Virus record (IMG/VR): IMGVR_UViG_3300015050_000961
Coordinates: 1 to 49,360 of that record
From: a virus
Taxonomy: Duplodnaviria > Caudoviricetes
Length of the DNA: 49,360 nt
Reading direction: 5' to 3' (one strand)
The position numbers and the translations under genes were made by a program. Positions 1,592-40,453 of this stretch are shown here, one piece after another. A model generated the notes under the pieces. It was given only the letters and a program-made list of their open reading frames with translations. It did no database searches and was not told the DNA's origin. The number at the start of each line of letters is the position of its first letter. Within the stretch, counting starts at the first letter, position 1.

Positions 1592-4500
1592 TCAATCGCT
1601 GTCCCGCGCTGCCGCGGAACCCGCCAGCAGCCGCCGGACGTGCTTGTTCGAAGCATCGGCGCTCAAGTCACGCACTTTGTTGGTCAGCAGGTACGACGCC
1701 AGGTCCGGATCGAACCATGCGCGCTCGATGACGCGCTGCACCGCCGCGGAATCGTCCGGCAGGGTTTGCGCCATGACGCGCAGCGTGCGGAGGTAGCCGC
1801 CGCCTTTGAGGATGCCGTATTTCGCCTTCAGGCCGGCTTCCGCGAGCCGCCACATCTGCGCCGACTTGTCCGCCGTGTTGGACCCGGAGGTCGCGCGGAC
1901 GGACGCGTTCTTCAGCGGCTCGAGCACGGCGTGCGCCTGCTGGAGCTTGTTCATCTCGTCGGGGTCGTAGACCTTGGCCAGAAGGGCCTCGTTCTGCTTG
2001 AACTGCTTGTCGAGCTTGCCCAATTCCGTGCGGTAGGTCGCACTGGTGCCCGCCTTGCCGGCGTCGATCTTCGCGGTGCCGCTGGTCGTATCGGCCAGCA
2101 CCTCGGAGACCGCCGCCTTCCAGCCGCGGTTCGCCTGCTTGTCGGCGCCGATCAGCTTCTTGATCTCGTCGAGTTCTTTCTCGGCGCCATAACTCTGGGA
2201 TCCGAAGATGCGCCGTGCGGTGTCGCGCGGGTCTTCCTTGAGCAGAGTGCCGATAACGGAACGATTGATCTCGTCTTCCGTCGCCTTTACCGCCTGCTGG
2301 CCGGTGCGCTCGGCAGTCCGAACAGTCTCTTGGCCGGTGCGCTCGGCGCCACGCACGGCGTCGCGGCCGCTGCGTTCCGTCGCGGTCAGTTCGCCGCGGG
2401 CGGCATCCAGGTTGGCCCGTGCTTCTGCCGAAAGCTGCTCGCCGCGACGCGCCGTCGCGACCATATTGTCGAACTCGCCACGAAGCGCGGGGAATTGTGC
2501 AAGGATATCGGCGTTGTTGCGACCCCAAGATGCCGCGCGGTTCGGGTTCAAGGTGCCATCGGGATTCAGCGCCACCATGCCGAAGTCCGACCGCAGATAA
2601 TCGCGCACGGCGTTCTGGCCATTCGGTGAATCGCCCATCATGCGCTGGAGCGCCTGCGCCTTCTCCGGACCCGCAAGGAAGCGCCCGGCCGTCTCGCTGG
2701 GCGGCGTGCTGCCGCGGGCCGGGTCGCGATCGATTTGGCGCGTGAACTTGGCGGCCTCATCGTTGGGCGACGGGCGGAATGTATCGGCGAACTGCCGGTA
2801 ATTGGCGTTAGCCTCGGTGTACCCCGGCGCGGCCTCGATCGTCGTGTTGATGGCACGGCGCAGAGACGCGATGTTGTCCGCTAGGTCGAAGTTGCCCGCT
2901 CGTTGCGCCTGCTCGTACGCGGTTCCGAGATACTTGCGCACATCGGCCAAGTCCTGACCTTGCGCAGTACCGGGGCCGCCTACGTTCACTTCACGCGTCA
3001 GGGGTCGACCATCAGGCCCGAGCACGGCGCTCGGCTGTTGCTGAATGTCCGGCGCCAGACGCTCGAGCCGCTGCACGAATTCTGCCGGGAGCTGGACGCG
3101 CTCCGGACCAAGATCGTTGATGTTCTGCCGAACGCGCTGCGCCGCCGCGATGACGTCGTCGGCCGGGAGCTGTTCGGTACGGCCGGGGGCGGTGTCGAAC
3201 TGGCGGTTCTTCTCGGTGCGAGCTGGGATGTAGCCCTGATCGACAACCGTCGTGTCGAGCCGGCGGCTGGCTTGCGCCTTGGCATCGGTGTTCGCGCTCG
3301 CTGCGATCGGCGCTCCGTACTGCTGGTTTTGCTGCTCGACGGTACGAACGCCACCTTCCGCCTCGGCGGCGCGCGCCTGCGCAGCGGCAATTCGTTCCGC
3401 GGCCGCGCGTTCTGCCGCTTGGACGTCGGTCTGCGCCAGCGTCTCGGCGTCTCGAATGCCTTGACTGGCGCCACGACGCGCTTCGGTCGTCCGCATCGTC
3501 GCTTCGGTGCGCGCAATAGCGGCCGGCTGCGACTGATCCGCCTTCGGATCCCGCAGGCTCTCCACCCGCTCCGTTGCGGCGGCTCGCAGCTTGTTGTCGT
3601 TCTCAATGAACGGCACGCCCTTCTTGGTGCGCGCTGCGGTCTCGGCGCTTTGCAGGCCCACGTCGTCGGACACAAGCCCAATGGTGGGCTGCGGGAGATC
3701 GGCCGCGCGCATCGTCGCGGCATTCTCACGGATGTTGGCAGCCGCAACGTCTGGGTTGCTGGCCACTTCCTGCATCATGCGCGACGCGGTCTCGGACTGA
3801 CCGCGCGTGACGGGCTGGAGCGTCGTCGGGTCAGCCGGGATATTCTTGTCAGTGCGGCCACGGACGAATGCGTCCTTGACCATGCGGCCGCCGGACTGAA
3901 CGCCTTCCTTGAGCGCCGCGCCGCCGACACCGCCCGCGAGTACGGCACCGGCATCCACCAGCGGTTTGTACCACTGGCCTTCGCCGATCTTGTTCTCTTC
4001 GACGGCGTTCATGGCTACGCCGGAACCAACGCCGGACGCCGCGTCGCCGGCGACCACGGATGGCGCGTTGTTGAAGTACGGCCGCACGAACGCGTCCGCC
4101 ATGCGGGGCGTCGCGCCTTCAGCCAGAGACGCTGCGCGAGCCGGCGCCATGGTCGCGAGCGCGCCACCGGTGACAACGCCCTGCGTGCCGTAATCGGAGA
4201 CATCGTACGCCAACCGCTGACGCGGGCTCATCTGCTCGCGCGGGATGGGCGTGCCGCCAACCGCTTGAAACGCCTTGGTGGCGCCGGCTTGCAGCATGTC
4301 GGATGCCGGAGTGGCATACGGGATATTCGTGTCGAACGCGGCGTTGATGCCGCGCGTGATGAGGTTCTGCGCCCCGGCCATAAGATCGAACGGCGCGGAG
4401 ACCGCTTTCGCCAAGCCGCTGCCGGTGCCTTGCGCGCCGATCTGAAGATCGCGGCCCGCGTCACGCAGCGTGTAGTCGTCTGCAACCACGGCACGGCGCA

Positions 4501-4705
4501 ACGGCCGCATCGCGCGAAACGGATCAGCTTCGGCCGGAGCGTCACGCAACGACTGGTCGGCCGCGGGGCTCGCGCCGACGGGCTGAAGCGGCTCGGCAGG
4601 CGCGGCGGTGCCGGTCGCGTAATTCTTCATTACGCGATCGACGACGGCCATGTCGGTGCCGTCGGGGAATTCGTGCATGACGCCGTCCGCCGAGCGAACC
4701 TGCAT
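1592..4705 (-). CDS. Large internal virion / DNA ejection protein
   Basis: 1037 aa, Ala-rich and helical; last of the internal-protein block, as in podoviruses. Confidence 0.7.
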   Translation of the reverse strand: MQVRSADGVMHEFPDGTDMAVVDRVMKNYATGTAAPAEPLQPVGASPAADQSLRDAPAEADPFRAMRPLRRAVVADDYTLRDAGRDLQIGAQGTGSGLAKAVSAPFDLMAGAQNLITRGINAAFDTNIPYATPASDMLQAGATKAFQAVGGTPIPREQMSPRQRLAYDVSDYGTQGVVTGGALATMAPARAASLAEGATPRMADAFVRPYFNNAPSVVAGDAASGVGSGVAMNAVEENKIGEGQWYKPLVDAGAVLAGGVGGAALKEGVQSGGRMVKDAFVRGRTDKNIPADPTTLQPVTRGQSETASRMMQEVASNPDVAAANIRENAATMRAADLPQPTIGLVSDDVGLQSAETAARTKKGVPFIENDNKLRAAATERVESLRDPKADQSQPAAIARTEATMRTTEARRGASQGIRDAETLAQTDVQAAERAAAERIAAAQARAAEAEGGVRTVEQQNQQYGAPIAASANTDAKAQASRRLDTTVVDQGYIPARTEKNRQFDTAPGRTEQLPADDVIAAAQRVRQNINDLGPERVQLPAEFVQRLERLAPDIQQQPSAVLGPDGRPLTREVNVGGPGTAQGQDLADVRKYLGTAYEQAQRAGNFDLADNIASLRRAINTTIEAAPGYTEANANYRQFADTFRPSPNDEAAKFTRQIDRDPARGSTPPSETAGRFLAGPEKAQALQRMMGDSPNGQNAVRDYLRSDFGMVALNPDGTLNPNRAASWGRNNADILAQFPALRGEFDNMVATARRGEQLSAEARANLDAARGELTATERSGRDAVRGAERTGQETVRTAERTGQQAVKATEDEINRSVIGTLLKEDPRDTARRIFGSQSYGAEKELDEIKKLIGADKQANRGWKAAVSEVLADTTSGTAKIDAGKAGTSATYRTELGKLDKQFKQNEALLAKVYDPDEMNKLQQAHAVLEPLKNASVRATSGSNTADKSAQMWRLAEAGLKAKYGILKGGGYLRTLRVMAQTLPDDSAAVQRVIERAWFDPDLASYLLTNKVRDLSADASNKHVRRLLAGSAAARDSD

Positions 4706-6096
4706 TACTGCACCCGATTGCCGGCTGCGTCGTACTGAATGACAGCAGGTGGCGCCCCCGGAGCCGGGGAGGGGGGTGGGGAGGCTCCGGGGGCAGCCTG
4801 CGCAGGCCCAGCGGGGACGGCCGGGCCGCGCAATGCGGATTGGTTGACGCCGTGCATGCGATCGGCGATCGCGTTCAGCGCATCGAGCTTGGCGTGCAGT
4901 TGGCCTTCGTTGGCGAACAGGCTCTCTGGATTGCCGAGGATACCCGTGACCATCTTGATGTCGTGATTGGACGCCTTGCCGACGCCGCCGGCGATCGCAT
5001 CCGCCGCGGTGAGCGTGAGCGCGTGGTACGCACTGCTAACTTGCGGCAAGCGCGGATCGAACGTGAACAGGTTGTTCGCCGTGTTGCTGTCGATGCCGCC
5101 AGATTGCACGCGCTGCTGAATGTTGGCGACGATGTCCTCGGCGCTCTTGATGCCGAGGCCCTTCGCGAGGCCGTCGGCGACTTGCACGATATCTTGCGCG
5201 GCGCCTTTGACCATGCCGGGAATGCCGACGTTCTGCGGCACGATGAGGCTGCGCGCGTAGTCGGCGACGCCTTTCATGCGATCGAGCGCGACGTTGGATC
5301 CCTGAAGCTGGCTCTGCACGGTCTTACTGAGACCCGACTGCTCCGGCGTGCCCTGCACGCTGGCAATTGCACCAGGAGGCAACGGCTGGCCGGTGCGAGC
5401 GTCGGTGATGCCATCGAAAGTCTGCATCATCGCGCCGCCCGCCTGCGGGATGTAGTTGTGCGGCGTGCGCACCTTCTCGTCGTTCGCGCCGACGAAGGTC
5501 TTCTCGGTCGGCGTGAGATTGTTGATGCCGTTCGGCTGATTGATCGCGCGACGGGCGTAATCGCCCTTGACCTTGCCGAGATCTTCCACGGCCGGCTGAC
5601 CGTAGGATTCACTGCGGCGCACGATCTGCGGGCCGCTTGGCGTGCCAACAGTCTGCGGCTGCGAATCAAACTGCCGACGCTGTTCGCCAACCGTCTCGGT
5701 GTGGCGACGATCAAGCCCGGCCTGCGTCTGCTTGAACGCATCGGCCGTGCTGCCGAATCCGCCGCCTGCGCCGACCACGGCGTTGTCCGTGCGCGGATCA
5801 GCCGCGCCGTATGTGTTGGCGTTGTAAACACGCTGCGCCGTGCCGAGCTGGCTCGGATCAATGCCAGCCGAGAATGCGTCGGCCAGCGTGCCGCGCATGT
5901 CGTAGCCCGGCGTTCCAATGTTGCGCACGCCGGCAGACAGTCGTTCGTGGCCTTCGCGCTTGCGCTTCTCCTGAAGCGCGCGCTCCGCAGTGTAGATGTT
6001 CTGGGCGTCGCTGGGTCCGCTCATGAACGCGCGCGCAAGCCCGCTCAACGCCGGAGCGAAGCGGGACGAGTACGGGTTCGGAATCGTGTCAGGCAT
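4705..6096 (-). CDS. Internal virion / ejection protein
   Basis: 463 aa, G/A/Q-rich, coupled start/stop with neighbours. Confidence 0.65.
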   Translation of the reverse strand: MPDTIPNPYSSRFAPALSGLARAFMSGPSDAQNIYTAERALQEKRKREGHERLSAGVRNIGTPGYDMRGTLADAFSAGIDPSQLGTAQRVYNANTYGAADPRTDNAVVGAGGGFGSTADAFKQTQAGLDRRHTETVGEQRRQFDSQPQTVGTPSGPQIVRRSESYGQPAVEDLGKVKGDYARRAINQPNGINNLTPTEKTFVGANDEKVRTPHNYIPQAGGAMMQTFDGITDARTGQPLPPGAIASVQGTPEQSGLSKTVQSQLQGSNVALDRMKGVADYARSLIVPQNVGIPGMVKGAAQDIVQVADGLAKGLGIKSAEDIVANIQQRVQSGGIDSNTANNLFTFDPRLPQVSSAYHALTLTAADAIAGGVGKASNHDIKMVTGILGNPESLFANEGQLHAKLDALNAIADRMHGVNQSALRGPAVPAGPAQAAPGASPPPSPAPGAPPAVIQYDAAGNRVQ

Positions 6097-6773
6097 CAGT
6101 AGAGCGCCCCCTTAAATGCCGGGTTCAACGACGAAGGCATTCCCTTGACTGGAGCACCGAAGCCTCCACCCCGTCCGCCGCTGTACGCGCCGAACGACCC
6201 CGCCAGTTGCATGATGTCGCCGACGCCAGAGTTCGGCCGGAACGCGTTCTTGTAGTTCGCGTCCTGCTCGAGCTTGCCGACACCCGCCGAGGTCTTCGAC
6301 AAATCGGTGTTGAGATCCAGGTTGCGGTTCGTGTCGTTCAAGTTGAGCTTGTTGTTGAATTGGTTCTGGCTGTAGCCGAACAGATTGCCGCGCGCCGTAT
6401 TGGACGCTTTTCCGAGATTGAGAATGTCGCCGACCTTGGTGGCTTCTGCGGTCTTGACGACCGACGGCGCCGTGCCGGAGCTGATCGAGCCGACGGACTG
6501 CGCGGTCGGGGCATTGCCTTGGAAGGCGCTCGCCACGGTCTGCTGATTGTTGGCAAGGTTGGCGGACTGCGTCGCCGGCGCGAAACCGTCGACACTCTTG
6601 CCGAAGATTTCGTTCGACTTCGCCTGGTAACCCTTCTGACGGCCGAGCTCGGCCTGCGTCGCGGCGTTACGCGCCTCGATCATGCTGCTCTGATTTTTAT
6701 TGGTCTCGTATGCGTTCACACCGGCGCCGGCCGCGCTGAGCGCAATCGCACCAATGCTGACTGGATCACACAT
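6096..6773 (-). CDS. Internal virion protein (T7 gp14-like)
   Basis: MCDPVSIGAIALSAAGAG N-terminus is typical of small ejection proteins. Confidence 0.7.
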   Translation of the reverse strand: MCDPVSIGAIALSAAGAGVNAYETNKNQSSMIEARNAATQAELGRQKGYQAKSNEIFGKSVDGFAPATQSANLANNQQTVASAFQGNAPTAQSVGSISSGTAPSVVKTAEATKVGDILNLGKASNTARGNLFGYSQNQFNNKLNLNDTNRNLDLNTDLSKTSAGVGKLEQDANYKNAFRPNSGVGDIMQLAGSFGAYSGGRGGGFGAPVKGMPSSLNPAFKGALY

Positions 6774-7390
6774 TAACCACCCACCACGTAAGCAGCGTTA
6801 CGCGTCGACGATGCGCTGGGCGCGAAGGCGCCGCGGTAGGCCGCCGGCAGACCCTTGTTCTGCCCCGCCATGTACGCCGTGCCGGCGTTGACTGCGCCGC
6901 TGAAGAGATCGCCGAGCGGATTGAACGCCTGCGGAGACTGAAGCGAGCCCGCGCGGCCTGCCGCGGAGATCGCCGACAGCGAGGGGTCCGCCGCGGAGAT
7001 GTTCTGGTTGTAAAGTTCGGTCTTGTTGCCCTCGACGTCGGTGCGGAGCTTGTTGGTCGCGTCGAGCGCGTTCGCTTCAATGCTCTGCCGCTGGTTGTTG
7101 TAATCGTAGATCAGATCGCCGAATGCCTTCTGACCAGGGGTGCCGTCTTCGGTCCCGGCACGCGCCAGGTTGTAATGCAAACCGCGCCGGGCCTCGCCGT
7201 ATTGGCGGTCCACCTGCGGGTTGTAGTAATCGGTGTAGGTCTGCTTGAACTTGTCGTAATAGGCCGGATCGAAGACGCCGAACTGCTCGTCGATCTTCGC
7301 CTTGCCCTGCTGGATGCGATCCTGCCGCTCCTGCTCCTGCTGACGCGCGATTGCTGCGGAATTGTCCTGTGGAGGACTAGGCGTGCACAT
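6773..7390 (-). CDS. Virion structural / internal protein
   Basis: 205 aa, MCTPSPPQDNSAAIARQQEQERQ; position in the ejection block. Confidence 0.65.
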   Translation of the reverse strand: MCTPSPPQDNSAAIARQQEQERQDRIQQGKAKIDEQFGVFDPAYYDKFKQTYTDYYNPQVDRQYGEARRGLHYNLARAGTEDGTPGQKAFGDLIYDYNNQRQSIEANALDATNKLRTDVEGNKTELYNQNISAADPSLSAISAAGRAGSLQSPQAFNPLGDLFSGAVNAGTAYMAGQNKGLPAAYRGAFAPSASSTRNAAYVVGG

Positions 7391-7456
7391 CGTTGATACG
7401 TCTTAACTAATAGCCCCGGCGCGGCGAGCTCCGGCGATGTGCATCCGACAGGCAAG

Positions 7457-7485
7457 AGGGTAGCAGGGAATGTCGGGTTTGTCGA
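7457..7485 (-). promoter_or_regulatory. Predicted promoter for the internal virion genes
   Basis: TCGACA-17 bp-TACCCT; spacer carries CCCGACA; TCGACAAACCCGACA is identical to the promoter at 24085-24113. Confidence 0.55.
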
Positions 7486-7489
7486 GCCG

Positions 7490-7568
7490 ACAAGAGGCGG
7501 GCCGCCCCGAAGGACGGCCCGCAGTTGGGTACAGGAGGACTACAGGAAATGCCGGAGAACCCGGCGCA
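7490..7568 (-). ncRNA. Candidate small RNA with anti-Shine-Dalgarno UCCUCCU
   Basis: Own promoter (7575-7603), 5' hairpin GCCGG-GUUCU-CCGGC, single-stranded UCCUCCU, 3' 11-bp cUUCGg hairpin (7497-7522). Confidence 0.5.
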
Positions 7569-7574
7569 GACAAT

Positions 7575-7603
7575 AAGCTACACCTGTCGGGTTTGTCCGT
7601 CAA
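7575..7603 (-). promoter_or_regulatory. Predicted sigma70 promoter
   Basis: TTGACG-17 bp-TAGCTT with CCCGACA in the spacer. Confidence 0.6.
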
Positions 7604-8069
7604 TGTCTTTCGACAAAACGTAGTGGAAATAATCGGAGCCATCCTTGCCGAAGCCCTCGCGGATGCTCTCCCGGCGCGCGCCCAGCCGCTTTAACCAGCG
7701 GTGCGCCTCTTCGTGCCGCCAGTGAGAATCGCACTGGAGACGATGCGCGCCGAGCTTTTCAAACAGGGTCGGAACCACATGGTCGAGCGCGAACCGCGAC
7801 ATCTCCGCAACGATGCGGCGCGTCATCTCGTCCGTGCCAAACATAAACATTGACCAGACACCTGGATGGATCGGGGCGCCGCCGAACACCGCGCAAGGTC
7901 GTTCGCCGGCCCACGCCACCCACGAGAAACTGGCCTGCGCCATCACGTCGTTCATGAGCAGGAACGGGTTCGGCTCAGCCCTGACGTTGTAAATCTCTTC
8001 CTTGTCCCGCTCGCGCATATTCATCGCGACGTGCAGCACGGTGTCGTGCGTGCAATGCGAGAGCCTCAA
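7578..8069 (-). CDS. GNAT-fold protein (T7 gp13-like internal virion protein A)
   Basis: NMRERDKEEI...GVWSMFMFGT...AHRWLKRLGARRE; canonical position after tail tube B. Confidence 0.75.
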   Translation of the reverse strand: MRLSHCTHDTVLHVAMNMRERDKEEIYNVRAEPNPFLLMNDVMAQASFSWVAWAGERPCAVFGGAPIHPGVWSMFMFGTDEMTRRIVAEMSRFALDHVVPTLFEKLGAHRLQCDSHWRHEEAHRWLKRLGARRESIREGFGKDGSDYFHYVLSKDIDGQTRQV

Positions 8070-10162
8070 GCGGCCTTCTCCGCTTCATAGTGCAAAGCCA
8101 TCATCGAGATGGTCGCGGGGCCGGCCTTGTTGCAACGCAGGATCGGCGCAACCATCGAGGTCTGGCCCGGCATCGGAATGCTGTTCGGGTCCGCAAAGGT
8201 GATGCGGTTGAGGCTCCCGATATTGATCGTGCGATCGTCGTCGTTGGGGTCAACCGCCACTTCGACCGCCCAAGTGTTCGTTGCGGCCAGGTCATAACCC
8301 AGCAGCCCCTTGATAGTGCCGGCCGTCTTACCGGCGAGGAACGGCAATTCAGCCAGTGCCTCGATTTCGTCGTCGTCCGGATATGTCTCGCCGTCCGCGC
8401 CGCCGTAGGTGAAGATGGCGTCTCCGGCTCGCACGTACAGCTTCTTGCCGATGCGGATCATCGCTTGGATGTCGTCGCCGTCGAATTCCTCCGGCTCGTA
8501 GTACGTCCACGCGCTGATCTTCGCGCCGGGGAAGTAACTCAGCACGAAGATGCGGTCCCCGATCGCCATAAGAAGCCGGCCATCGCGCGGCTCGATCGCG
8601 CCGAGCGCGGCGCGATAACGCTGCACGGGCAAGGTGTCGACGTATTCCTGGACAAAGGTGTCGATTGCGTTGCCGACGTCGGACACGAACGGCGCATTGG
8701 TCTGGTCACGCGCCTTCAGGCTGCGAATGCCGGTGATGTCGAGGTAGAAAACATCGGTGTTGCCGTACCCGATCGCAGACTTGCTGGCCTCGGTGCCGGT
8801 CTTCTCGAGCGCCTCGGCAAACGCGAAATTCGCAGGGTCGACGTCAAGATTGAACAGCACAACTTCAGCGCCGCTGAAAATCGCGGCCTGGCCTTGGTAG
8901 CGCGCGGCCACCACGAGCTTTTCGTTGCCTTCGGTTTCCGAGGCCACGTTGACGAAGCCAGAATCGTTGTCCGACGTGGCGTTCGCCGGATCCCAGATGT
9001 CTGCGCGGCTCAACATGCAGTAGCGCCACAGGCTCCCCACGGGGCTGAAGACGCGTTTCTTGTCCACGTAAAGAGATCGGCCAGTGCCGGATGCAAGGCC
9101 CGTAACTTTGTACGCGGTGCCGTCGATCGTGATTGTGAAGGTGTCGGCCGCTTGGAACGTGCCGCTGAGTGCAGCGCGCGTGATCTGCGCGACGGGCTCG
9201 ACCTCGGTGACGCCACCAGCCATCGCGGCCTCGGCGTCCACGGTGACGTTGCCGGTCGTCGTCGCAACGACTTCGTAGCCGTTGGGGGTGGCGCCGGTCC
9301 CAATGCCGGCTGAGATGGTCACGATCTTGTCGATCGCCTCGGCCGAATAGCCGTGCGTGGCGTTGCCGTTGTTGATTTCCGTCGCCAGTTGAATGGCCGT
9401 CGTTCCGTCGGAGCCCGTCCAGTCAACTGGCGCCCCAAGCAGTTCCGTCGCGTTGTTGATGAGAACCGACGAAATGGTGTTCACGCCTGCATCAGCACTA
9501 CCGCCGGTCACTTCCACGGTCGCGGTCGCGCGCACCTCGGCGACTGCCGCCACGTTGGCTTGCACCGTAGTCAGGGTGATGTCCTGGTCGTTATTGGCCC
9601 CGCCGTCGGTCGTCGACTTCGAAATCGTGAACGCCGTCCCCGCTTCTTTCGCAGTGATGGTGAGCGCGCTACCGAACGGCAACACGCTCACCGCGTCGTT
9701 CGATTCGATCTTCTCGGCGAGGGCTTCGGCGACGGTCGTGAAGCTCGCCATGCTGGCGGCGATGACGTCCCAATCGCTGACCCGGGTGCCGTTGTAGAAA
9801 TGATAGACGTGGCCGTCGTCGTACTCCGCGATCGCGTAAAACGATCCGCTAAAGGCACGCACGTCCAAGAGCTTGACCATCGCGGGCGTGCCGGGCGCCT
9901 GGAGCCGCTGGTACTGCACGCCGTTCGGCATCGACGACGCTAGGTTCGCGCTGCCGAACACGTAGAGCTGGCCACGTATGGCGGCCGCGCCCAGCGTGCC
10001 GGGCACACTGTAGGTGGAGACGAATTTCTTGCGGCGCTCGATGTCGCCACCGCGCGTGATGTGGACGTTCTTGCCGTTCCAGAGCGAGCCGGGAAGGCCA
10101 GCGACACGCTTGCGCCGCCGATCCATGCCTGCGTTGAAATTTTCGACGACGATGTACGCCAC
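8066..10162 (-). CDS. Tail tubular protein B / nozzle
   Basis: 698 aa, starts YIVVENFNAGMDRRR...NVHITRGGDIERR, beta-rich; follows the adaptor. Confidence 0.75.
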   Translation of the reverse strand: MAYIVVENFNAGMDRRRKRVAGLPGSLWNGKNVHITRGGDIERRKKFVSTYSVPGTLGAAAIRGQLYVFGSANLASSMPNGVQYQRLQAPGTPAMVKLLDVRAFSGSFYAIAEYDDGHVYHFYNGTRVSDWDVIAASMASFTTVAEALAEKIESNDAVSVLPFGSALTITAKEAGTAFTISKSTTDGGANNDQDITLTTVQANVAAVAEVRATATVEVTGGSADAGVNTISSVLINNATELLGAPVDWTGSDGTTAIQLATEINNGNATHGYSAEAIDKIVTISAGIGTGATPNGYEVVATTTGNVTVDAEAAMAGGVTEVEPVAQITRAALSGTFQAADTFTITIDGTAYKVTGLASGTGRSLYVDKKRVFSPVGSLWRYCMLSRADIWDPANATSDNDSGFVNVASETEGNEKLVVAARYQGQAAIFSGAEVVLFNLDVDPANFAFAEALEKTGTEASKSAIGYGNTDVFYLDITGIRSLKARDQTNAPFVSDVGNAIDTFVQEYVDTLPVQRYRAALGAIEPRDGRLLMAIGDRIFVLSYFPGAKISAWTYYEPEEFDGDDIQAMIRIGKKLYVRAGDAIFTYGGADGETYPDDDEIEALAELPFLAGKTAGTIKGLLGYDLAATNTWAVEVAVDPNDDDRTINIGSLNRITFADPNSIPMPGQTSMVAPILRCNKAGPATISMMALHYEAEKAA

Positions 10163-10165
10163 GCG

Positions 10166-10855
10166 TCACCCGACCCGGATGATGGCTTTTTGGGGAGTGC
10201 CGCCGCGGGGGCCTTGGCCGCCGATGCGGAAGCTCTCCGTCCCGGTCTTGGACCGCGCCTTCTTGCGCAGAAAGCGTTGCTGCGCGGCCATGAGCTTGGC
10301 CTGCACGTTCCTATCTTTCGGCAAAAGCTCAACGGCCGAATAGAGAATCACAAGGTGGTCGTCGACCAAGCACCGATCGGCGTCGTCGACCATCTGGGCG
10401 AATTTCTTGAAGCCGCGGAATTGCATCTCGCCTTCCGCGTCAGGCAACGGCCAAATCTCGACCATCTCTCGGGTGTCGACGAACCGCACGTCCCACCGCT
10501 CCGGCGGGTCCATGCGCGCGTCGGCTTCCGGGTCGTAGATGGCGTATTGCTCGAAGCCGATACCGCGCGTCAGCGGCTTCGGCTTGCCGTTCCACCAGTA
10601 GACGACCTCGTCCGTGGAATCGGCGTCGAGCTCCGCGGGGAAATCGTAGTGCCGCTGGCCGGCGTTGACTGCCTTCTTCGGAGTGATGACCGATAGATGC
10701 GGCCAATCATACTCCTCGTAGATCGTCTCGTAGTTGCGCTGAAGAGTGCGCTTCAGCGACGGCAGGTCCGCAACGCCGGCAGCCGGGTCGACGGATCGAC
10801 CCAGCTCGGCGCGCAAATCGTAAATCAACTGGCCGAATTGGCGACGAAGCGCCAT
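10166..10855 (-). CDS. Tail tubular protein A / head-tail adaptor
   Basis: 229 aa with YDWPHL, GQRHYDFP and EIWPLPD motifs. Confidence 0.75.
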   Translation of the reverse strand: MALRRQFGQLIYDLRAELGRSVDPAAGVADLPSLKRTLQRNYETIYEEYDWPHLSVITPKKAVNAGQRHYDFPAELDADSTDEVVYWWNGKPKPLTRGIGFEQYAIYDPEADARMDPPERWDVRFVDTREMVEIWPLPDAEGEMQFRGFKKFAQMVDDADRCLVDDHLVILYSAVELLPKDRNVQAKLMAAQQRFLRKKARSKTGTESFRIGGQGPRGGTPQKAIIRVG

Positions 10856-10861
10856 GAAGGC

Positions 10862-11290
10862 TTACTCCGCGAAGGAGGGCTCTTGAATCTTTGTGGCTTT
10901 GCCCGCGACCGGCACTTCCGCCGGATCATCGTCTTCTTCCTCGACCACCGGTGCGAGATCGAGCTCTTTCGGCAGAGGGTTGCGGTCGTGGCCGAACAAG
11001 TCGCGGATCATCCGCATCTTCTTGTCGGCGCTCTCGGCAACAGTGGTCGCAGGATTGGCGAACATGGCGACCAAGCGATCGCGTTCCTCTTTGTCGGTGC
11101 GGGGGCGCTTCTTGGTGGCCGAAACCGCGACTTCGGCGATGCCGCCCGTGTCGACGATGCTGACCACGGCGTCCGCGCCGTGCAGCGCACGCAGGAGTTC
11201 GATCTCCGGCGCAGTCACGCCGGACTTCGGCACCTCGTTGAGCACACTGCCCTGGAGCCGCACCTTGCAGTCGTACAGCTTGAAACTCAT
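10862..11290 (-). CDS. Hypothetical head-region protein
   Basis: 142 aa, VTAPEIELLRALHG, good RBS. Confidence 0.65.
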   Translation of the reverse strand: MSFKLYDCKVRLQGSVLNEVPKSGVTAPEIELLRALHGADAVVSIVDTGGIAEVAVSATKKRPRTDKEERDRLVAMFANPATTVAESADKKMRMIRDLFGHDRNPLPKELDLAPVVEEEDDDPAEVPVAGKATKIQEPSFAE

Positions 11291-11310: not shown

Positions 11311-11336
11311 GAGACGCGGGCCGAAGCCCGCGTCTC
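11311..11336 (-). terminator. Hairpin after the capsid/decoration genes
   Basis: Perfect 11-bp stem GAGACGCGGGC with cUUCGg loop on the minus strand; weak U-tract. Confidence 0.65.
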
Positions 11337-12625: not shown

Positions 12626-13672
12626 TTACGCGATGCTGTAAACGCCGTGGGCGTTACGCTGTTTGCAGACGAGGCCGCCCATGTAGGTCATGGCGCGATA
12701 GAAGACGTACTTGTTCTCCGGACGCGCCGGGAAGTGCTTCTTCATGTTCTCGCCGTCGACCACCCACGGGGTGATGAACCGCTCGTCGATGACGTAGAGA
12801 TACTTCGCCTTCGACAGGTCATCGAGCGTCGGGTCGTACTGGATCTTGTTGCCCTTGAACGAAATGTCGGCCATGCCGGCATCGGTGTTCTTCTGCGAGG
12901 TCCAGCCTTCGAGGGTGTAGTTGCCCTTGGAGCGCAGTTCCTTCTCCATCCACTCGATGAAGTCGGAGCCGGCGAGCCAGGTCTTCGGATTGCCGCCGTA
13001 GCGACGAAGCTGGCGCCATTCCTTCTGAAGCTTCGCGACGACCACCTGCGCGGACGCGTCCGACGTGCTCAGAGCGAGCGACGCGCGGTTGCGCCAGCCG
13101 GAATTGGCCGACTGATCGATGCCGCCAACGATGGTGGCGGACGTCGGGTCGTTGAGGATGATCGACGTCAGGCCCGGTACGAGCTTGGGATCGGACGTGC
13201 CGTCCGCCCAATACATCGCGTTGAAGCCACGGTCGATGCCCTCCATCATATCGTCGAACTTCTCTTCGAGAATGTTGACGAGCGCGGTGAGCTCACGATC
13301 GCTGTGATCCGATTCACCCTTGCCGGTGGTCGTATCGGTGATCGAGATGCCGTCCTTGGCGCATTCGTGCATCGAGAACTGGATGCCGGCGTGAATCAGC
13401 TTCCACGGGTAGCTGTAACGCTTCGTGTTGGCTGGGTTGCTGTAGCCGACCTCGTCGTCGTTCTCGAAGCCCTGAATGGTCGTCGAGTATTCGAACTTGG
13501 CGGCGCCGGTGAGAAACTCTTTGCCACCCGGGAAAGTCTTCTCGTTGGCGCGGAGGGCCTTGAGAAGGGGCTTGTCCTGGAGAGTCTGCGCCTGGACTTT
13601 CCGGCGCTCGAGGTAGAAGTCGAGGGTGGAGTTGGCAATCGTCTCCACCTGCTGAACGGTAAACGAACCCAT
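12626..13672 (-). CDS. Major capsid protein
   Basis: 348 aa after the scaffold; KTFPGGK, YPWKLIHAGI, IQYDPTLDD. Confidence 0.85.
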   Translation of the reverse strand: MGSFTVQQVETIANSTLDFYLERRKVQAQTLQDKPLLKALRANEKTFPGGKEFLTGAAKFEYSTTIQGFENDDEVGYSNPANTKRYSYPWKLIHAGIQFSMHECAKDGISITDTTTGKGESDHSDRELTALVNILEEKFDDMMEGIDRGFNAMYWADGTSDPKLVPGLTSIILNDPTSATIVGGIDQSANSGWRNRASLALSTSDASAQVVVAKLQKEWRQLRRYGGNPKTWLAGSDFIEWMEKELRSKGNYTLEGWTSQKNTDAGMADISFKGNKIQYDPTLDDLSKAKYLYVIDERFITPWVVDGENMKKHFPARPENKYVFYRAMTYMGGLVCKQRNAHGVYSIA

Positions 13673-13690: not shown

Positions 13691-14776
13691 TTATGCCACC
13701 GACGCTAAAGCTCGCTTCGCCGCCTCTACGGCATTGGCTGGCTTCGACATCGATCGGCTTGAAGCAACGTCTGTGATGGGTGTGACCGCCTTCGGCTTCG
13801 GAGCGAGTCGCTTGAACTCGTCGTTCACGTCGGACAGCGCCTTATCGGCGAACTTGACCGCGTCTTCGGGCGTCCACCGGAAATTCCGGTCCTGACGTTC
13901 CCGCTTCAGCGTCTCAAGCTCCACAAGCTGCATCACGCGCGCTTGCTTCTGTTTCCAATCAGGGTCCGATCCGGCTTTGGAGGATTCCCACTTCGCGACC
14001 GCGTCCGAAACTTGGGTCTGCTGGGTCTCAAAATCCTGCTGCTGCTTGAGCGTCTGTTCGCGAGTGTCGCGCTGCTGAACCTGCTGTGTCGCAAGAGCGG
14101 CCGCGGACTTACTGCGCGCGAGATCGCGAGCATGTGCTTCCGTGATCTGCCCCTGGTTGACCGCCTGTTGGAGGTCTTCAGGGAGCCGAACACCGACCAG
14201 CCCTTCGAGCTGATCCATGATCGGTCGCAGAGTCTCGTAAGCTTTCAGCGGGTTGGTCTTGAGATCCCGCATCACGTCGAAGCCCTGGTTCACCTCGTCT
14301 TTCGAGAGACCAGCTTCTTCGACGTAGCGCACGAGTTGGTCGTACGAAGCCGCTTTAGGCTCCAGTTCGTCCACCCGGCGAGCCTTCGGTTCAAGTTCAT
14401 CAAGCTGACGCTTGAGATTGACCTTGTCGGCCGTCAGGTTCTCGATACGCGCCCGAGTCTTCGGTTTGAGCCGAGCGAGCTCCTCCGGAGTCAGATCGTC
14501 TGCCGCCTTTGCCTGTTCGCCGCCTTCGGCGGGTTTGTCGGCATTGTCGGCTTTCGAACCCTCGGTTTCGGAGGCGGACGATTTCTCCTTCGTGGGATCC
14601 AGCGCTGCCTTTACTCGAGACAGCAGGTCGCCCTTAGCGTCCTGGGGTTCCGCAGTCGACGACTCTACGGGTTGCTTAGCGTCGGCATTTGGTTCGGTCT
14701 GTACGACGTCGACCTTGGTCTCAGCGACCGCGGCCTCACCGCTCTCGACCTTGTCTTCCGGAGACGATCCCGGCAT
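13691..14776 (-). CDS. Scaffolding protein
   Basis: Acidic coiled-coil protein between portal and capsid; ATG at 14776 with GAGAGGG RBS. Confidence 0.75.
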   Translation of the reverse strand: MPGSSPEDKVESGEAAVAETKVDVVQTEPNADAKQPVESSTAEPQDAKGDLLSRVKAALDPTKEKSSASETEGSKADNADKPAEGGEQAKAADDLTPEELARLKPKTRARIENLTADKVNLKRQLDELEPKARRVDELEPKAASYDQLVRYVEEAGLSKDEVNQGFDVMRDLKTNPLKAYETLRPIMDQLEGLVGVRLPEDLQQAVNQGQITEAHARDLARSKSAAALATQQVQQRDTREQTLKQQQDFETQQTQVSDAVAKWESSKAGSDPDWKQKQARVMQLVELETLKRERQDRNFRWTPEDAVKFADKALSDVNDEFKRLAPKPKAVTPITDVASSRSMSKPANAVEAAKRALASVA

Positions 14777-14788
14777 TGCGTCCCTCTC

Positions 14789-14830
14789 TTTGTCGGTTGG
14801 AATAATCCGACAAAGCCGACAAAATGTCAA
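14789..14830 (-). promoter_or_regulatory. Predicted scaffold/capsid promoter with three CCGACAAA boxes
   Basis: TTGACA at 14825-14830 followed by TTTTGTCGGCTTTGTCGGATTATT and an inverted CCGACAAA. Confidence 0.6.
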
Positions 14831-16986
14831 ACAGAAGGCGTGCCGGGTTGCGGCGTCGTGTACTCCGGCTGTGACTGCGGCTCGTTGTTCTGCGTGCTCT
14901 CGGCGTTATCGCCGCCCTGATCGCCTTGCTGATTGGGATCGTTCGGCCCGGCGCCGGCCTGCATGTTCGTGCCGGACATCTTGTTGAGCGACGCCATCGA
15001 CGGCATGCCTTCGACGTAGCCTTCCTCGATGTCCATGTCGAAGAGGGTCAACGCCTTCTGCGCCCACGGGCGCGGGTTCATACCAGGGATCACCTGGATG
15101 TACGGCATCGCGCGCTCCCAGTTCGCCAACTCGGCCGCACGGTTCGGGCGGCCGCTTGATCCGGCCTCGATGCCGAGAACAAGATCCTTCACCACCTGCT
15201 CGCGAGACGGCGGCGTATCGGGCCACACTGCACCGGGACCAACGATCTCGATAACCGTGTCCTTGGTCAGCTCGAGCAGCATCAGTTGGCCCATAGCGCG
15301 CGCGAGCGCAGTCAGCATGGTGTCGAGGTCGTCGACGTCGCTGCCGGCGGCCGTCATGCGGCTCTGTTCGGCGATCGACGTCTCCGTCGCGGTGTCACCA
15401 GACGTGCCGCCGAGGTTCGCTTGCTGACCCCCGACGGACATCTGGAGGTCCGTCATAGTCGTGCTGGTCTCGTAGAGATTGGGATCGACGCCGGGCGTCT
15501 TCAGCCAGCCGATCTGATCCTCGGCCCGTTCGCCAACTTGAACGGAATTCAGTTCAATGACTTCGAAGGGTTCTTTGGTCCTAAACTGCGTAACGTCCTC
15601 TTTGCTCAGCTTTCCCTTGATCGCAACCGGCCGCGGTCGCGCAGCGATGCGGTGCTCGCGCCGACCTTGGCCGGCCGAATTCCATTCCTTCTGCATGTGC
15701 CGCGCGTTCCACACGTCGGACGGCGGGAATATCTCATCTTCATCCTCGATCTCGTTGAGCACGAGCGGAAACAACGTCCAGAAGCGTTCGATCTTCACGT
15801 CGGGCTCAGCCGGCGCTTTCAAAAAGTCAGGATAGCCGTCGCAGACGGTGTAAACCTCGCCGTTGACCTTGTCCTGCACCTCCCAGACACGAGCGCGCGA
15901 CTTTTTGTCGACCGACGTGGTCGTCTTGCCTTCTTTGTTGTACGCCGTGAAGTTCCCGGTGACATCGACCTTGTAGACCTCCAGGATCTTCTCCGGGGTC
16001 ATCTCGAATTCCTGCGACACGCGACGGCAACCGGCGAATGTCTTCAGATGGCGGCAATCGCGATCCGGAATGATCTCGGTAGAGCGTGGGAAGCTCAGCA
16101 CCGGCCCTTCGCGCACGATGATCTCGACCTTGGACTGAAGGTTCTCGATCAAGATTTTCAGTTCTTCCGTCTTTGCGCTGTTCTCCTCGTAGGCAGCATC
16201 ACCCTTGGCCATGCACGCAAGCATCGCTTCGATCTTGGCCACCTGATCGGTCGCATCGGCGATCTTCGATTCGATGTCCGGACGCTTCTCGAGCACGCGC
16301 TGAAAACCCAGCTTGACGTAGCCGACGCCGCAGACCTTTCCGCGACGCACGAGCGCCTTGAGCTGCTCCTTGTAACCGCTGTCCTGCTCGTCGAAATAGT
16401 ACGCGAACAACAACTGCATGGTCTTTGCCATGCGGTCGTAGAGAAGCATCTCCTGTTTCGCGGCCTGCACTTCGGCCAGCAACGCCGCGGCGTTCGGGTC
16501 CGGCTGCGCGACAACCACGGGCTGCTGTGTCGCCGGGTCGATGGTCGGCTGTCCCGTGAGAGGATCAGCGACCGGCGCTATGATCGGCGGCGCGGCAAGC
16601 GCGGCTTGGATGGACGCAGGGTCGCCATCCCAAATCTGGAACAGCAATTTCTTCTTGCGCTTCGCGATCGACGTCGGATTTTTTGCGTACAGCGTTGCGA
16701 CCGCCTGGTTGATGAGGCGGTTGATGATCGGGACGACGTAGCTGCCACTCTCGGCCTCGGCATCCGCCGTCGTGGTCGTGCCGTGCGCCGCCAGCTTCAT
16801 GCAGGTGCGCATGCGCTTGAACGCCGGTGCCCAATGATCTTTGGACGCCTTGATGTCCTTGATGATGTCCTGGACGAGCGCTGTACGCTCGGGAGGTACG
16901 TCGACCGGTGTGACCTGCGTTGCCGCCTGCGGCGTGCCAGTGCCGGCACCGCCTTCGGTCACGTCGCCTTCTTCAGTTACAGCCAT
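14827..16986 (-). CDS. Portal protein
   Basis: 719 aa after TerL; GVGYVKLGF, TATETSIA, IEAGSSGRPN. Confidence 0.85.
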   Translation of the reverse strand: MAVTEEGDVTEGGAGTGTPQAATQVTPVDVPPERTALVQDIIKDIKASKDHWAPAFKRMRTCMKLAAHGTTTTADAEAESGSYVVPIINRLINQAVATLYAKNPTSIAKRKKKLLFQIWDGDPASIQAALAAPPIIAPVADPLTGQPTIDPATQQPVVVAQPDPNAAALLAEVQAAKQEMLLYDRMAKTMQLLFAYYFDEQDSGYKEQLKALVRRGKVCGVGYVKLGFQRVLEKRPDIESKIADATDQVAKIEAMLACMAKGDAAYEENSAKTEELKILIENLQSKVEIIVREGPVLSFPRSTEIIPDRDCRHLKTFAGCRRVSQEFEMTPEKILEVYKVDVTGNFTAYNKEGKTTTSVDKKSRARVWEVQDKVNGEVYTVCDGYPDFLKAPAEPDVKIERFWTLFPLVLNEIEDEDEIFPPSDVWNARHMQKEWNSAGQGRREHRIAARPRPVAIKGKLSKEDVTQFRTKEPFEVIELNSVQVGERAEDQIGWLKTPGVDPNLYETSTTMTDLQMSVGGQQANLGGTSGDTATETSIAEQSRMTAAGSDVDDLDTMLTALARAMGQLMLLELTKDTVIEIVGPGAVWPDTPPSREQVVKDLVLGIEAGSSGRPNRAAELANWERAMPYIQVIPGMNPRPWAQKALTLFDMDIEEGYVEGMPSMASLNKMSGTNMQAGAGPNDPNQQGDQGGDNAESTQNNEPQSQPEYTTPQPGTPSV

Positions 16987-16987
16987 T

Positions 16988-18655
16988 TCACCACCTCGAC
17001 ATCATGTTTGCGGACTTGCGTTCGCGTTCCTGCTTCGCGGTCTGCGCAAGCATCCATTTCACCGAACCGACTCGGACTACGTTGTCGCTACGATGCGGCG
17101 CATCCGCCGCAATCTCCTTCGTGAGACCCATGCCGATGTGCGACAACCAGTCGACGAAGTCGTCATTCGTTCCGTAGGGGAATTTCAAAAGCTGATTGCG
17201 CGCGTCGGCCCACCACGGCGCGAACGCCGGGAAGTGAATCTTCTGCATGCGCATGCGGCCTTGGACGGCGCGAGCACGCGTCTTCTTGTCCTTCGAGACC
17301 GTCACCGGGTCGATCGCGGTGTAAATTTTCTCTTCGAGCATCCGCTTGTGCAGGAACGGCCCGAACGACTTCGAGATGAGCTCGCTCTCCATCCACCACA
17401 GGTCTGGCTTGTGCGCCTTGAACTTCAGAAGCAGCTCGTCGACCGTACGGTCGGTCTCCATGCGTTCCCACACAAGGTCGGGCAACACCCAGATGTCATC
17501 GTTCTCGTCGATGCCGACGCAACCAAGGACCGTGAAGTCCGCCTTCTGCTTTTCGGACACCGCGTGATCGCTGGCGCCGTACTTGCGGATGTTCGTCGGG
17601 ATGTCGGCCGGGCTGTGATACTCGACCAAGTCCGCCGCCGTAAAAAATTCGCCATCTTCCGGCGCGGGCCGGCCCATGCGCAGCGCAGTGAAGCCGCGCT
17701 TGTCGAGCCGCTTCTGCTTGGCCAGGAATTCGAGCGAAAATCGCTGCGGCCAAAGCGCCGCGATCGGCTTCGTGCCGAACTGAGCGCGCACTAGCGGCTC
17801 CTGCTGCACGCGCAGGGTCAACCCCAATGCCTTCGCGAGCGCCGGGTCTTCAACCACGGCTGGGATGTTAATGTGCAACCAATCCTCGGCGATGCCGGAG
17901 TATTTCTTGTGACGCTCCGGGTGGTCCGGATCGCAGAGCCGGCCGATCAGGTCGTCTTCGTGCCATCGCGTATGCACGACGACCATCGCGCTGTCGTTGT
18001 GAATGCGGGTACTCGCCACCTTCGTGAACCAGTTCCACGTCCGGTCGCGATAGAGTTCGCTTTGCGCGTCGTCGTCGTTACGAATCGGATCGTCGACGAT
18101 GAAGACGTCCGCGGGCTTACCGGTGCCGGAACCGCCGACGCCGACGAACGCCAGCTTGCCGCCCTTGGTGGAAATCAGAAGGTCTTTCGCCTGGCCGCCT
18201 TTGCGCAGCTCAAATTCCGGGAAGACCTGATGATGCGAATCCGAGATGAGGATGTTGCGCACGTCATCGCCGAACTCGTTCGCGAAATCCTGATTGTAGC
18301 TGCCGAGAATGGCGTTGAGAGTTGGCCGCCGCCCGAACATCCACGACGGGCCGCGGCGCGACAACACCTCTGATTTGCCGGTCTGCGGGCCAATCGAGAC
18401 AGCCGCGTTCTTGTCGCCGCGCTCGGTGAGGGGTTCGCCACGGGCAATCTTCTCGAGGATCTGGCAAAGCAACTGCGCTTGCGGCGTGATGGTGTAGCGC
18501 GACACCCGTGCGTCATCCGGATCGTTCGGCTCAGGCATCGTGAACAGGATGTACTTGAGCAAACTGTCCTTGGCTTCGCGCGCAGCTTCGAGGCGCTCCG
18601 CTGCTTTCAGCGTCGCCTTGCGAAGTTCAAGATGCCGTTGCTCGGTCGAGGTCAT
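16988..18655 (-). CDS. terL: Terminase large subunit
   Basis: Walker A GPQTGKS, Walker B FIVDDPI, TRWHEDD, nuclease ASDHA and DDFVD. Confidence 0.95.
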   Translation of the reverse strand: MTSTEQRHLELRKATLKAAERLEAAREAKDSLLKYILFTMPEPNDPDDARVSRYTITPQAQLLCQILEKIARGEPLTERGDKNAAVSIGPQTGKSEVLSRRGPSWMFGRRPTLNAILGSYNQDFANEFGDDVRNILISDSHHQVFPEFELRKGGQAKDLLISTKGGKLAFVGVGGSGTGKPADVFIVDDPIRNDDDAQSELYRDRTWNWFTKVASTRIHNDSAMVVVHTRWHEDDLIGRLCDPDHPERHKKYSGIAEDWLHINIPAVVEDPALAKALGLTLRVQQEPLVRAQFGTKPIAALWPQRFSLEFLAKQKRLDKRGFTALRMGRPAPEDGEFFTAADLVEYHSPADIPTNIRKYGASDHAVSEKQKADFTVLGCVGIDENDDIWVLPDLVWERMETDRTVDELLLKFKAHKPDLWWMESELISKSFGPFLHKRMLEEKIYTAIDPVTVSKDKKTRARAVQGRMRMQKIHFPAFAPWWADARNQLLKFPYGTNDDFVDWLSHIGMGLTKEIAADAPHRSDNVVRVGSVKWMLAQTAKQERERKSANMMSRW

Positions 18656-24014: not shown

Positions 24015-24084
24015 CGCGCTCTGGGACAATCGAACAAGCGTGGGGGCCGGCGGCGAAGCGGCTCAGCGATCTGCCGTGCCGGAA

Positions 24085-24113
24085 AAGCTATCACACGCTG
24101 TCGGGTTTGTCGA
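24085..24113 (-). promoter_or_regulatory. Predicted tail fibre promoter
   Basis: TCGACA-17 bp-TAGCTT, CCCGACA in the spacer. Confidence 0.55.
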
Positions 24114-24289: not shown

Positions 24290-24498
24290 GTCTCAGATTT
24301 TGCGATGGGGCTGTCGGTTTCGTCAAACCCGATAAACCCGACGAAAGGTTTTGGCGGATTGCAAATTAGCGGAGAAGCCTTGCGGCCTTCGGCGACCGAC
24401 GCGCCGGCCCCCCGCCAGGGGTAGGGGCCGGGCGGCGGGGCCAGGTGGCGCCTCGGATCGCAGGGGGCTGGAGGTAATGAAGCCTCTATCAGGCTGCA

Positions 24499-25043: not shown

Positions 25044-25126
25044 CCGACAAACCCGACAAATAATTATTGACAAGGGGAGAACCGAATCCCTATTGTCGGG
25101 TTTGTAAGGCAATAGCAACCGACAAA
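25044..25126 (+). promoter_or_regulatory. Strong early promoter with four CCGACAA boxes
   Basis: TTGACA (25067-25072)-18 bp-TATTGT; boxes at 25044, 25053, 25093 (inverted) and 25119. Confidence 0.7.
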
Positions 25127-30498: not shown

Positions 30499-30734
30499 GC
30501 CGCCACCCGGAGAATCACCTCATCGATATGTTCGACGATGTCGGATGCGGTGAAGCCTTCGAGGGTCAGGATCGTGGCGACATTGAGTTTGTTTTTAACG
30601 AGCTCGCCCCCGAATTCGGCGTTCTTGAAGCGCAATACACGCGACATGATGTCGATTATGTCGGGCGTTTGTCGGGCGAGGAACCCGACAGGCGGCATGC
30701 CCGAAGTCTCGACGTCCAAAGGATTTTCTATCAT
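30495..30734 (-). CDS. Hypothetical protein
   Basis: 79 aa ending RVAA, coupled to the next gene. Confidence 0.5.
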   Translation of the reverse strand: MIENPLDVETSGMPPVGFLARQTPDIIDIMSRVLRFKNAEFGGELVKNKLNVATILTLEGFTASDIVEHIDEVILRVAA

Positions 30735-30765
30735 CTTGGCGTCCCCGCGATTTGGTTATGTCTGG

Positions 30766-30875
30766 TGTGTCGGTCGAGTCTAACCGACAAAAACACTATC
30801 GCTCGAAAAAATTACCCTTGTCAATCGGGAACATCCATGCGAGTGTCGGTTCATGCCACCCGACAACTTTCGACA
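30766..30875. promoter_or_regulatory. Divergent promoter region of the replication modules
   Basis: ATTGACAAGGG on the minus strand (TTGACA at 30819-30824); several CCGACA/TGTCGG boxes. Confidence 0.6.
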
Positions 30876-37299: not shown

Positions 37300-37322
37300 T
37301 TCTACGAAACCAGGAGGCCGAC

Positions 37323-40409: not shown

Positions 40410-40453
40410 GGTCTTGACTGACAAGTTTCAACTTCAACCAACGGAGAATTCGA

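Follow-up and report, generated by a model that had tools for sequence, protein, structure and literature searches.

A predicted promoter-to-terminator insert in the virion operon of a temperate podovirus: candidate transcription punctuation with a short RNA as a possible by-product

The DNA analyzed here, referred to throughout as the window, is the virus record IMGVR_UViG_3300015050_000961, a complete record of 49,360 bp with direct terminal repeats of 123 bp that belongs to a temperate podovirus. In the virion module of this phage, which is of the podovirus type and is encoded on the minus strand, the genes for proteins of 163 and 205 amino acids (aa) are separated by a gap of 187 nucleotides (nt) that contains no gene. 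A compact series of elements lies at this gap (Table 1): a promoter-like site (P1), a short hairpin (hairpin 1), an open tract with the pentamer CCUCC, a terminator-type hairpin (hairpin 2) with a short tail, a second predicted promoter (P2) and the leader of the 205-aa gene. P1 occupies the final 26 bases of the 163-aa gene, and its TAG (7580-7578) doubles as the stop codon of this open reading frame (ORF). Direct reading of the sequence confirmed all the elements that the original prediction had placed here on the minus strand. A possible interpretation, toward which we lean without firm conviction, is that the insert is transcription punctuation in the virion operon and that an RNA of about 78 nt arises from it as a by-product. 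This reading starts from what is directly observed: the elements themselves and their rarity, the absence of the insert from most relatives, the conservation of P2 and the leader, and the generic character of hairpin 2.

Table 1. Features of the gap between the 163-aa and 205-aa genes and of the surrounding virion module
Feature	Position	Strand	Remarks
P1, promoter-like	7575-7603	minus	TTGACG (7603-7598), 17 nt, TAGCTT (7580-7575)
Hairpin 1	7551-7565	minus	GCCGG-GUUCU-CCGGC, 5 bp; at the predicted RNA 5' end or close to it
Open tract, 28 nt	7523-7550	minus	AUUUCCUGUAGUCCUCCUGUACCCAACU; CCUCC at 7538-7534, word CCUGUA twice; unpaired in the minimum free energy and centroid structures
Hairpin 2, terminator-type	7497-7522	minus	11 bp (10 G-C), UUCG loop, -25.1 kcal/mol
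3' tail	7490-7496	minus	CUCUUGU, weak U-tract
P2, predicted restart promoter	7457-7485	minus	TCGACA (7485-7480), 17 nt, TACCCT (7462-7457)
Conserved leader of the 205-aa gene	7391-7456	minus	CCGGAGCUCGCCGCGCCGG at 7434-7416; kept in 4 of 4 aligned phages
Large terminase	16988-18655	minus	
719-aa ORF, taken as portal	14827-16986	minus	read as portal because its position follows the terminase; without family match
Major head protein	12626-13672	minus	
SU10-type adaptor	10166-10855	minus	
698-aa protein	8066-10162	minus	
Upstream virion gene, 163 aa	7578-8069	minus	internal virion protein type (phrog_308 'internal virion protein', E 3.9e-11)
Downstream virion gene, 205 aa	6773-7390	minus	starts MC...; follows the 187-nt gap
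Three larger proteins beyond the 205-aa gene		minus	

Under the punctuation reading, hairpin 2 would end or attenuate transcripts arriving from upstream, and transcription of the internal-virion genes downstream would start afresh from P2. P1 would fire into hairpin 2 and give rise to the RNA of ~78 nt, extending from ~7567 to ~7490 and consisting of a 5' hairpin and the open CCUCC tract ahead of the terminator; should this RNA accumulate, it would resemble the brief, terminated transcripts made from other phage promoters and would have no dedicated target. Such a promoter-to-terminator unit is plausible on the sequence, and this much of the original prediction, a stand-alone, ORF-free unit with a restart promoter behind it, is borne out at that level. 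No phage RNA polymerase was recognized among the 49 ORFs compared with PHROGs (expectation value, E, up to 1e-5), and hence the phage most likely relies on the host RNA polymerase.

A search of both strands of the whole window for TTGACR-N16-18-TAnnnT yielded 2 matches against 0.47 expected. One of these is P1, where the hexamers are 17 nt apart, within the 16-18 nt spacing of sigma-70-type promoters; the other, at 25067, lies in the divergent early control region. A stricter scan based on TATAAT missed P1 and returned no promoter on either strand between 4000 and 11000. As a sigma-70-type match, P1 is as good as P2, which has the form TCGACA-AACCCGACA-N8-TAnnnT and a twin at 24085-24112. In an alignment of P2 with its counterparts in three related loci (L003, L004 and L036), all 4 phages share the T, A and T of the -10 element, TAnnnT, without exception, and the L003 counterpart, TCGACA-17-TATAGT, scores 10 of 12 in the promoter scan; P2 is therefore well supported as a real promoter, if still a predicted one. 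The leader that follows it (...GCGGACGCAGA..CCGGAGCUCGCCGCGCCGG...) corresponds to 2937-3000 in L003, 2933-3000 in L004 and 1-83 in L036, and the 205-aa gene itself starts with ATGTGC, with no Shine-Dalgarno sequence discernible upstream by eye. The conserved leader may act in cis as a regulatory RNA or else bind a protein.

Both promoters contain a 13-nt motif, GACAAACCCGACA, which is composed of two CGACA half-sites and has 17 matches with at most 2 mismatches in the window, against 1.33 expected; 4 of the matches are exact. Two exact copies flank the unit on the minus strand: copy 1 (7597-7585) sits in the P1 spacer, within coding sequence, and copy 2 (7483-7471) sits within P2, the motif overlapping the -35 element in promoters of the P2 type. 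Further copies are found at 24099-24111 (minus) and 25046-25058 (plus), and clusters at 14527-14821, 24312-24343, 25046-25106, 28115-28179 and 30678-30771; the motif occurs in both orientations, often beside TTTTGTCGG, and mostly in intergenic or divergent control regions. It recurs in the relatives L003, L004 and L014, and a reversed control pattern gave no match. In L004, which has no insert, the counterpart of P2 falls within the final part of the 163-aa homologue and includes the exact 13-mer in a reading frame different from that in the window; given this difference of frame, the motif is evidently constrained as DNA and not as protein. Probably, a phage regulator binds it, or it forms part of a class of promoters.

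Hairpin 2 is of a common type. The 20-mer at its centre is found without a change in at least 119 viral contigs, with an estimated total of ~240, and by eye these contexts are mostly non-coding DNA; among 103 distinct contexts, the 8 nt after the hairpin include at least 5 T in 75 and at least 4 T in 92. For the tail in the window, the best 8-nt stretch has 4 T, and the terminator scan requires 5 of 8. Hairpin 1 is likewise terminator-like in a simple terminator scan. When 201 nt from the locus were compared by BLAST with the candidate host family (301 genomes), 32 genomes gave matches, mostly at the hairpin, and none of the 301 contained the open tract or the whole unit. Judged by its sequence, hairpin 2 is a generic terminator-type hairpin, and for this reason likeness in the hairpin is uninformative on the homology of the unit. 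U-poor tails are also found on two other GC-rich intergenic hairpins of the window, at 11311-11336 and 40370-40400, in support of a role in punctuation. The former, on the minus strand, is a second 11-bp hairpin with a UUCG loop (-23.6 kcal/mol), located in a gap of 58 nt between the virion genes for the 420-aa and 142-aa proteins.

The RNA as drawn, of 83 nt, folds with a minimum free energy of -36.5 kcal/mol (z = -3.2; 1 of 200 shuffles equally good), and CCUCC is unpaired with a probability of 0.87-0.95. On its sense RNA, the 49-kb genome has 33 copies of the pentamer and, in 6 of 103 distinct unrelated viral contexts, it is found at most 45 nt upstream of the identical hairpin; given these counts, its presence at the gap is only mildly unusual, at roughly 2-6%. 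The word UAGUCCUCC in the open tract (7534-7542) is repeated, with 9 of 9 identical, at 7371-7379, among the first codons of the 205-aa gene (MCTPSPPQD); the repeat is on the same, minus strand and hence is not a pairing partner.

Comparison of homologous loci, anchored on the 205-aa gene, covered 32 viral and 24 metagenome loci, one of the latter (L035) being the window itself, and left out the closest relative by protein, the contig that encodes the neighbour protein P0001 (90% identical). For 24 of the 31 viral loci examined, the distance from the 205-aa homologue to the end of the closest open frame upstream is at most 31 nt, or the two overlap. A homologue of the 163-aa gene lies directly upstream in 9 loci, where the spacers are 2 nt (L008-L010), 12, 16 and 25 nt, one overlap, 68 nt (L004) and 269 nt (L003), such that only L003 among the loci with the same gene pair has a spacer above 100 nt. 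The 187-nt gap is, on this comparison, a lineage-specific insert. In L003, TTGACT-17-TAGTGT lies at the position of P1, its TAG again serving as the stop codon (1 match at the locus against 0.02 expected), and the order is that of the window: P1 over the stop codon, a non-coding stretch that begins with a hairpin, a strong hairpin (14 bp, followed by GUGUUUUU), P2 and the leader. The TT of TTGAC derives from an ATT codon in the window, where ATT makes up 21% of Ile codons, and from CTT in L003, CTT accounting for 14% of Leu codons with the genes of the window as proxy. The non-coding stretch is ~80 nt long in the window and ~190 nt in L003 (2732-2925), and the two sequences are unrelated. The L003 insert has a 12-bp hairpin right behind the stop codon and a mini-frame, GGGAGAGAG...AUG AAG CUG UAA; it lacks CCUCC, and its best Rfam match is an unrelated leader (E 0.48). 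The architecture is thus kept between the two phages, and the content of the RNA is not.

A lack of conservation of UCCUCC in homologous loci, which the original prediction had listed as grounds for refuting it, was indeed observed: the RNA sequence is absent from L003 and L004. However, both are distant relatives, with flanking-gene protein identities of 38% and 60%. Among the loci compared, no relative has the sequence of the unit or compensatory changes in it. The GenBank phage collection returned no match to the 3 kb around the site; a 261-nt query gave only matches to 33 nt of the hairpin (E 0.9), in 77 actinobacterial-phage records; the exact 18-mer of the open tract is present in no contig of IMG/VR; and alignment of the 205-aa gene against genome contigs identified no confirmed locus. 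This restriction of the element to one genome in the searches made, together with the exact 13-nt repeats that bound the insert 114 nt apart, could be taken to suggest that the spacer is left over from a past recombination between copies of the motif, with P1, the hairpins and CCUCC all retained by chance. However, identity is limited to the 13-mer and the flanks of the two copies differ, which argues for selection on both motif sites as opposed to a fresh duplication; moreover, the layout of P1 and terminator recurs in L003, and the z-score of the fold points in the same direction. We consider the absence of any function very unlikely.

Several observations weigh against punctuation as the sole role of the insert. 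P1, as one of only two matches in the genome, seems too good for an idle site: it retains the exact 13-nt motif within a gene (L004 reads the motif in a different frame), draws the TTGAC from the minority codon ATT, and has a counterpart of like design retained in L003. A promoter aimed at a terminator suggests that either the short RNA or regulated read-through matters. In addition, the open tract includes CCUCC, a pentamer that the sense RNA of this genome is depleted in; the likeness to the small RNA family BjrC1505 described below exceeds that of all 83 control and related phage records; and the U-poor tail leaves efficient termination uncertain.

On the reading of the original prediction, developed further here, P1 would drive a stand-alone, trans-acting small RNA (sRNA) of ~78 nt, in effect a non-coding 'moron', which would use its CCUCC/CCUGUA tract to base-pair with the Shine-Dalgarno regions of mRNAs from the host or the phage and so prevent their translation. 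We rate this possibility as somewhat unlikely, and yet a serious contender. The quality and rarity of P1, the matching P1 in L003, a terminator hairpin of its own, the lack of an ORF in the unit and the exposure of CCUCC, mildly unusual here by the 6 of 103 controls, all speak for it, as does the best of the Rfam matches. At gathering scores, the whole window has no Rfam match, so that the covariance search envisaged earlier reached no family. Searched at E up to 10 with all 4227 families, the region returned five weak matches, the best of which is BjrC1505 (RF02356), at 7492-7635 on the minus strand, with 21 bits against a gathering score of 50; its E is 0.14 in the search of 701 nt with all families and 0.0024 when this one family is searched against the genome. 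None of 50 phage records with the identical hairpin (50 of the at least 119 were searched) reached 21 bits, the best scoring 15.2, and none of 33 related records did so, the best scoring 13.4.

BjrC1505 is a trans-acting sRNA of Bradyrhizobiaceae and other Rhizobiales, a clade that also holds some homologues of the phage proteins. From 120 host loci gathered by a pattern derived from the Rfam consensus, 24 copies were aligned; their 3' module consists of the hairpin GAGUGGCUCCUGUCCACUC, the open UGUUUGACGCCUCCCUGUUAUCAACUU, a terminator and a run of U6-8, and the hairpin and open tract are nearly invariant. In the phage unit, the parts are ordered and spaced alike, namely as a short hairpin, an open tract of the form CCUCC(C)UGU...CAACU and a terminator hairpin, the host version comprising ~30 open nt with CCUCCCUGU...CAACU; CCUCC, UGU and CAACU are common to both. 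In contrast to the nearly invariant host copies, the phage hairpin differs throughout and the tract differs outside these words, the tail CUCUUGU lacks the U-run, and the 5' part of BjrC1505 has no counterpart in the phage unit, the 5' half of the model aligning only to coding sequence and with low confidence. A U-run at the 3' end is usually needed by Hfq-type sRNAs, and its absence, along with a score far under the gathering threshold, counts against an sRNA here. We see here a resemblance of design, possibly through distant descent or an imitation of the 3' module present in the host lineage, and not membership in the family. Expression of the BjrC1505 family in Methylorubrum is documented by Northern blot (bioRxiv 10.1101/2022.01.24.477521). 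A search of IMG/VR for motifs of the BjrC1505 type gave 23 loci, nearly all of them plainly chance occurrences. One, in a contig of 7227 bp (L300), has at ~330-470 the sequence CCTCCCTGTTATCGACTT, which is almost the BjrC1505 open tract, with a terminator before it and a terminator-like hairpin after it; L300 produced no BjrC1505 match at E up to 1.

The search for targets likewise gives the sRNA little to act upon. Duplex energies of the open tract with 71 heuristically defined phage start regions are the same as those of shuffled sequences (mean -13.59 vs -13.64 kcal/mol); 12 complementary 8-mers are present where 24.8 would be expected, the sole 9-mer being on the wrong strand; and, for host targets, the complement of one 17-mer, with at most 2 mismatches, has 2 matches in five genomes of the candidate host clade, against 2 control matches. 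Complementary sites are accordingly not enriched in either set, nothing but the hairpin is matched in the 301 genomes of the family, and CCUCC and the rest of the RNA sequence are missing from L003 and L004. Of three sequencing runs that were mapped, one had no depth over 7372-7591 and the other two had none anywhere, and one run contained 0.12 of the sequence words; none was listed as RNA, so these figures do not bear on expression. The ribosome-binding sites that had been quoted as partial matches, ACAGGAGAC at 42542 and CAGGAGG at 37311, do exist, yet nothing sets them apart from ordinary Shine-Dalgarno sites, and they show no enrichment. Similarly, the open tract is indeed the exact complement of a ribosome-binding site plus start codon, but this follows automatically from the presence of CCUCC and of CAU 10 nt away. 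With no enrichment of targets, no family, no retention of the RNA in L003 or L004 and a U-poor tail, the case for a trans-acting anti-Shine-Dalgarno silencer is unsupported; this reading comes down to a single CCUCC pentamer and is not established.

Read on the plus strand, the complement of the tract could be a real ribosome-binding site: AGGAGG is followed by an ATG at 7549 and an open frame of 24 codons (7549-7623, in the frame of the ORF at 7525-7623), which would encode a peptide of 24 aa antisense to the end of the virion gene, and GGAGG is depleted in the genome. However, the spacing of 10 nt between AGGAGG and ATG is long, no promoter was detected on either strand in the scan of 4000-11000, the neighboring genes are all on the minus strand, the sequence is found in no relative, and 24 aa are too few for a test of homology, so that such a peptide appears extremely improbable.

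Two groups of alphaproteobacterial sRNAs, to which the element had been likened, were considered and rejected. The cuckoo RNAs (alpha-r14/RSs0680/CcsR) expose a C/U-rich motif that resembles an anti-Shine-Dalgarno sequence and consist of 2-4 adjacent hairpins with CCUCCUCCC in each loop (PMC4615179). The phage unit has a single CCUCC in the linker and loops GUUCU and UUCG, with no CCUCCUCCC; the likeness thus fails at the loops. In Rhizobiales, AbcR1 and AbcR2 (alpha-r15) combine an exposed C/U-rich anti-Shine-Dalgarno seed with a terminator and are encoded by tandem genes with CUCCCA motifs. No AbcR family matched, either at the gathering score or at E up to 10, and these features were not seen in the sequence.

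A known parallel in layout is the short lambdoid pR'-tR' transcript that gives StxS, in which a phage promoter is followed immediately by a terminator to give a short RNA; it exemplifies a by-product of transcription control that is able to act as an sRNA (PMC7547250). The lambdoid unit, in contrast to the one described here, heads the late operon and depends on the antiterminator Q, whereas the phage unit lies in the middle of the virion operon and has its own restart promoter. By analogy with lambda pR'-tR' and Q, P1 could be a regulated promoter that serves the genes downstream, with termination at hairpin 2 being conditional and giving way to read-through once a phage factor modifies RNA polymerase; the 13-nt motif would then be the putative site of this factor and the ~78-nt RNA a terminated leader. 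The location of the exact motif in the P1 spacer and its presence at other phage promoter regions, the weak U-tail, which fits partial or conditional termination, and the preservation of the layout in L003 are compatible with such control. So is a second arrangement of promoter, leader, terminator and gene on the plus strand (40262-40455), where four CCGAC-N-AGA repeats come after TTGACA-18-TAAATA and lead to a GC-rich hairpin of 13 bp (40370-40400, tail ACUCUUUCU), ahead of a gene that starts at 40455, with no restart promoter behind the hairpin by eye; this region may constitute a second promoter-leader-terminator unit (40262-40410) and suggests control by read-through. At the 187-nt gap, however, P2 is conserved directly behind the hairpin, so that the downstream genes need no read-through; furthermore, promoters of the P2 type place the motif over the -35 element and not in the spacer, and no antiterminator was recognized in the comparison of the ORFs with PHROGs, in which many ORFs received no annotation. 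On balance, attenuation of this kind seems doubtful at this locus.

Morons are autonomous inserts of promoter, cargo and terminator between conserved phage genes, and variable cargo at one insertion point is expected of them. At the sequence level, the phage unit is similar in being inserted between genes that are adjacent in relatives, in having its own promoter-like site and terminator-type hairpin, and in the different content of the slot in the window and in L003, a variability that is also in keeping with the sRNA proposal. It differs in that the cargo is non-coding and P1 carries the regulatory motif of the phage itself, and because of this motif, expression independent of the lytic program is not implied.

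In addition to the virion module, the phage encodes an integrase, a CI-type repressor, a DNA polymerase and a primase-helicase; no tRNA or tmRNA was found in the window. The 205-aa protein has 70 homologues, two of which are named from ~50-kb contigs in the assemblies of Bradyrhizobium stylosanthis and B. neotropicale, and from the origin of such homologues we infer a Bradyrhizobium-like host. Two repeats elsewhere in the genome were noted: the ORF at 25143-25877 (plus) holds two tandem 72-nt copies, 93% identical, at 25198-25341, and in the tail-fibre gene (22374-24029), a 30-nt period is repeated six times at 23373-23603 and gives a ten-residue repeat.

To our knowledge, phage sRNAs in rhizobia-type bacteria are essentially unexplored, and a search of the literature for phage-encoded small RNAs in connection with anti-Shine-Dalgarno sequences found only Caulobacter's own sRNAs. 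Should the RNA be produced and work in trans, a phage in this group of bacteria would be carrying a look-alike of one of their sRNAs. In its strongest form, which we consider unlikely, a podophage of a Bradyrhizobium-like host would carry a non-coding moron, with the 78-nt RNA built like the business end of BjrC1505 and taking over part of the host regulon or masking Shine-Dalgarno sites in lysogeny or late infection, and with a different RNA cargo in the same slot of a sister phage. If, as we tentatively prefer, the insert serves punctuation only, the locus would show how virion operons are split in this group of phages, by a terminator followed by a conserved class of promoters. This class, TCGACA-AACCCGACA-N8-TAnnnT, would be built on a 13-nt motif that is retained even within coding sequence.

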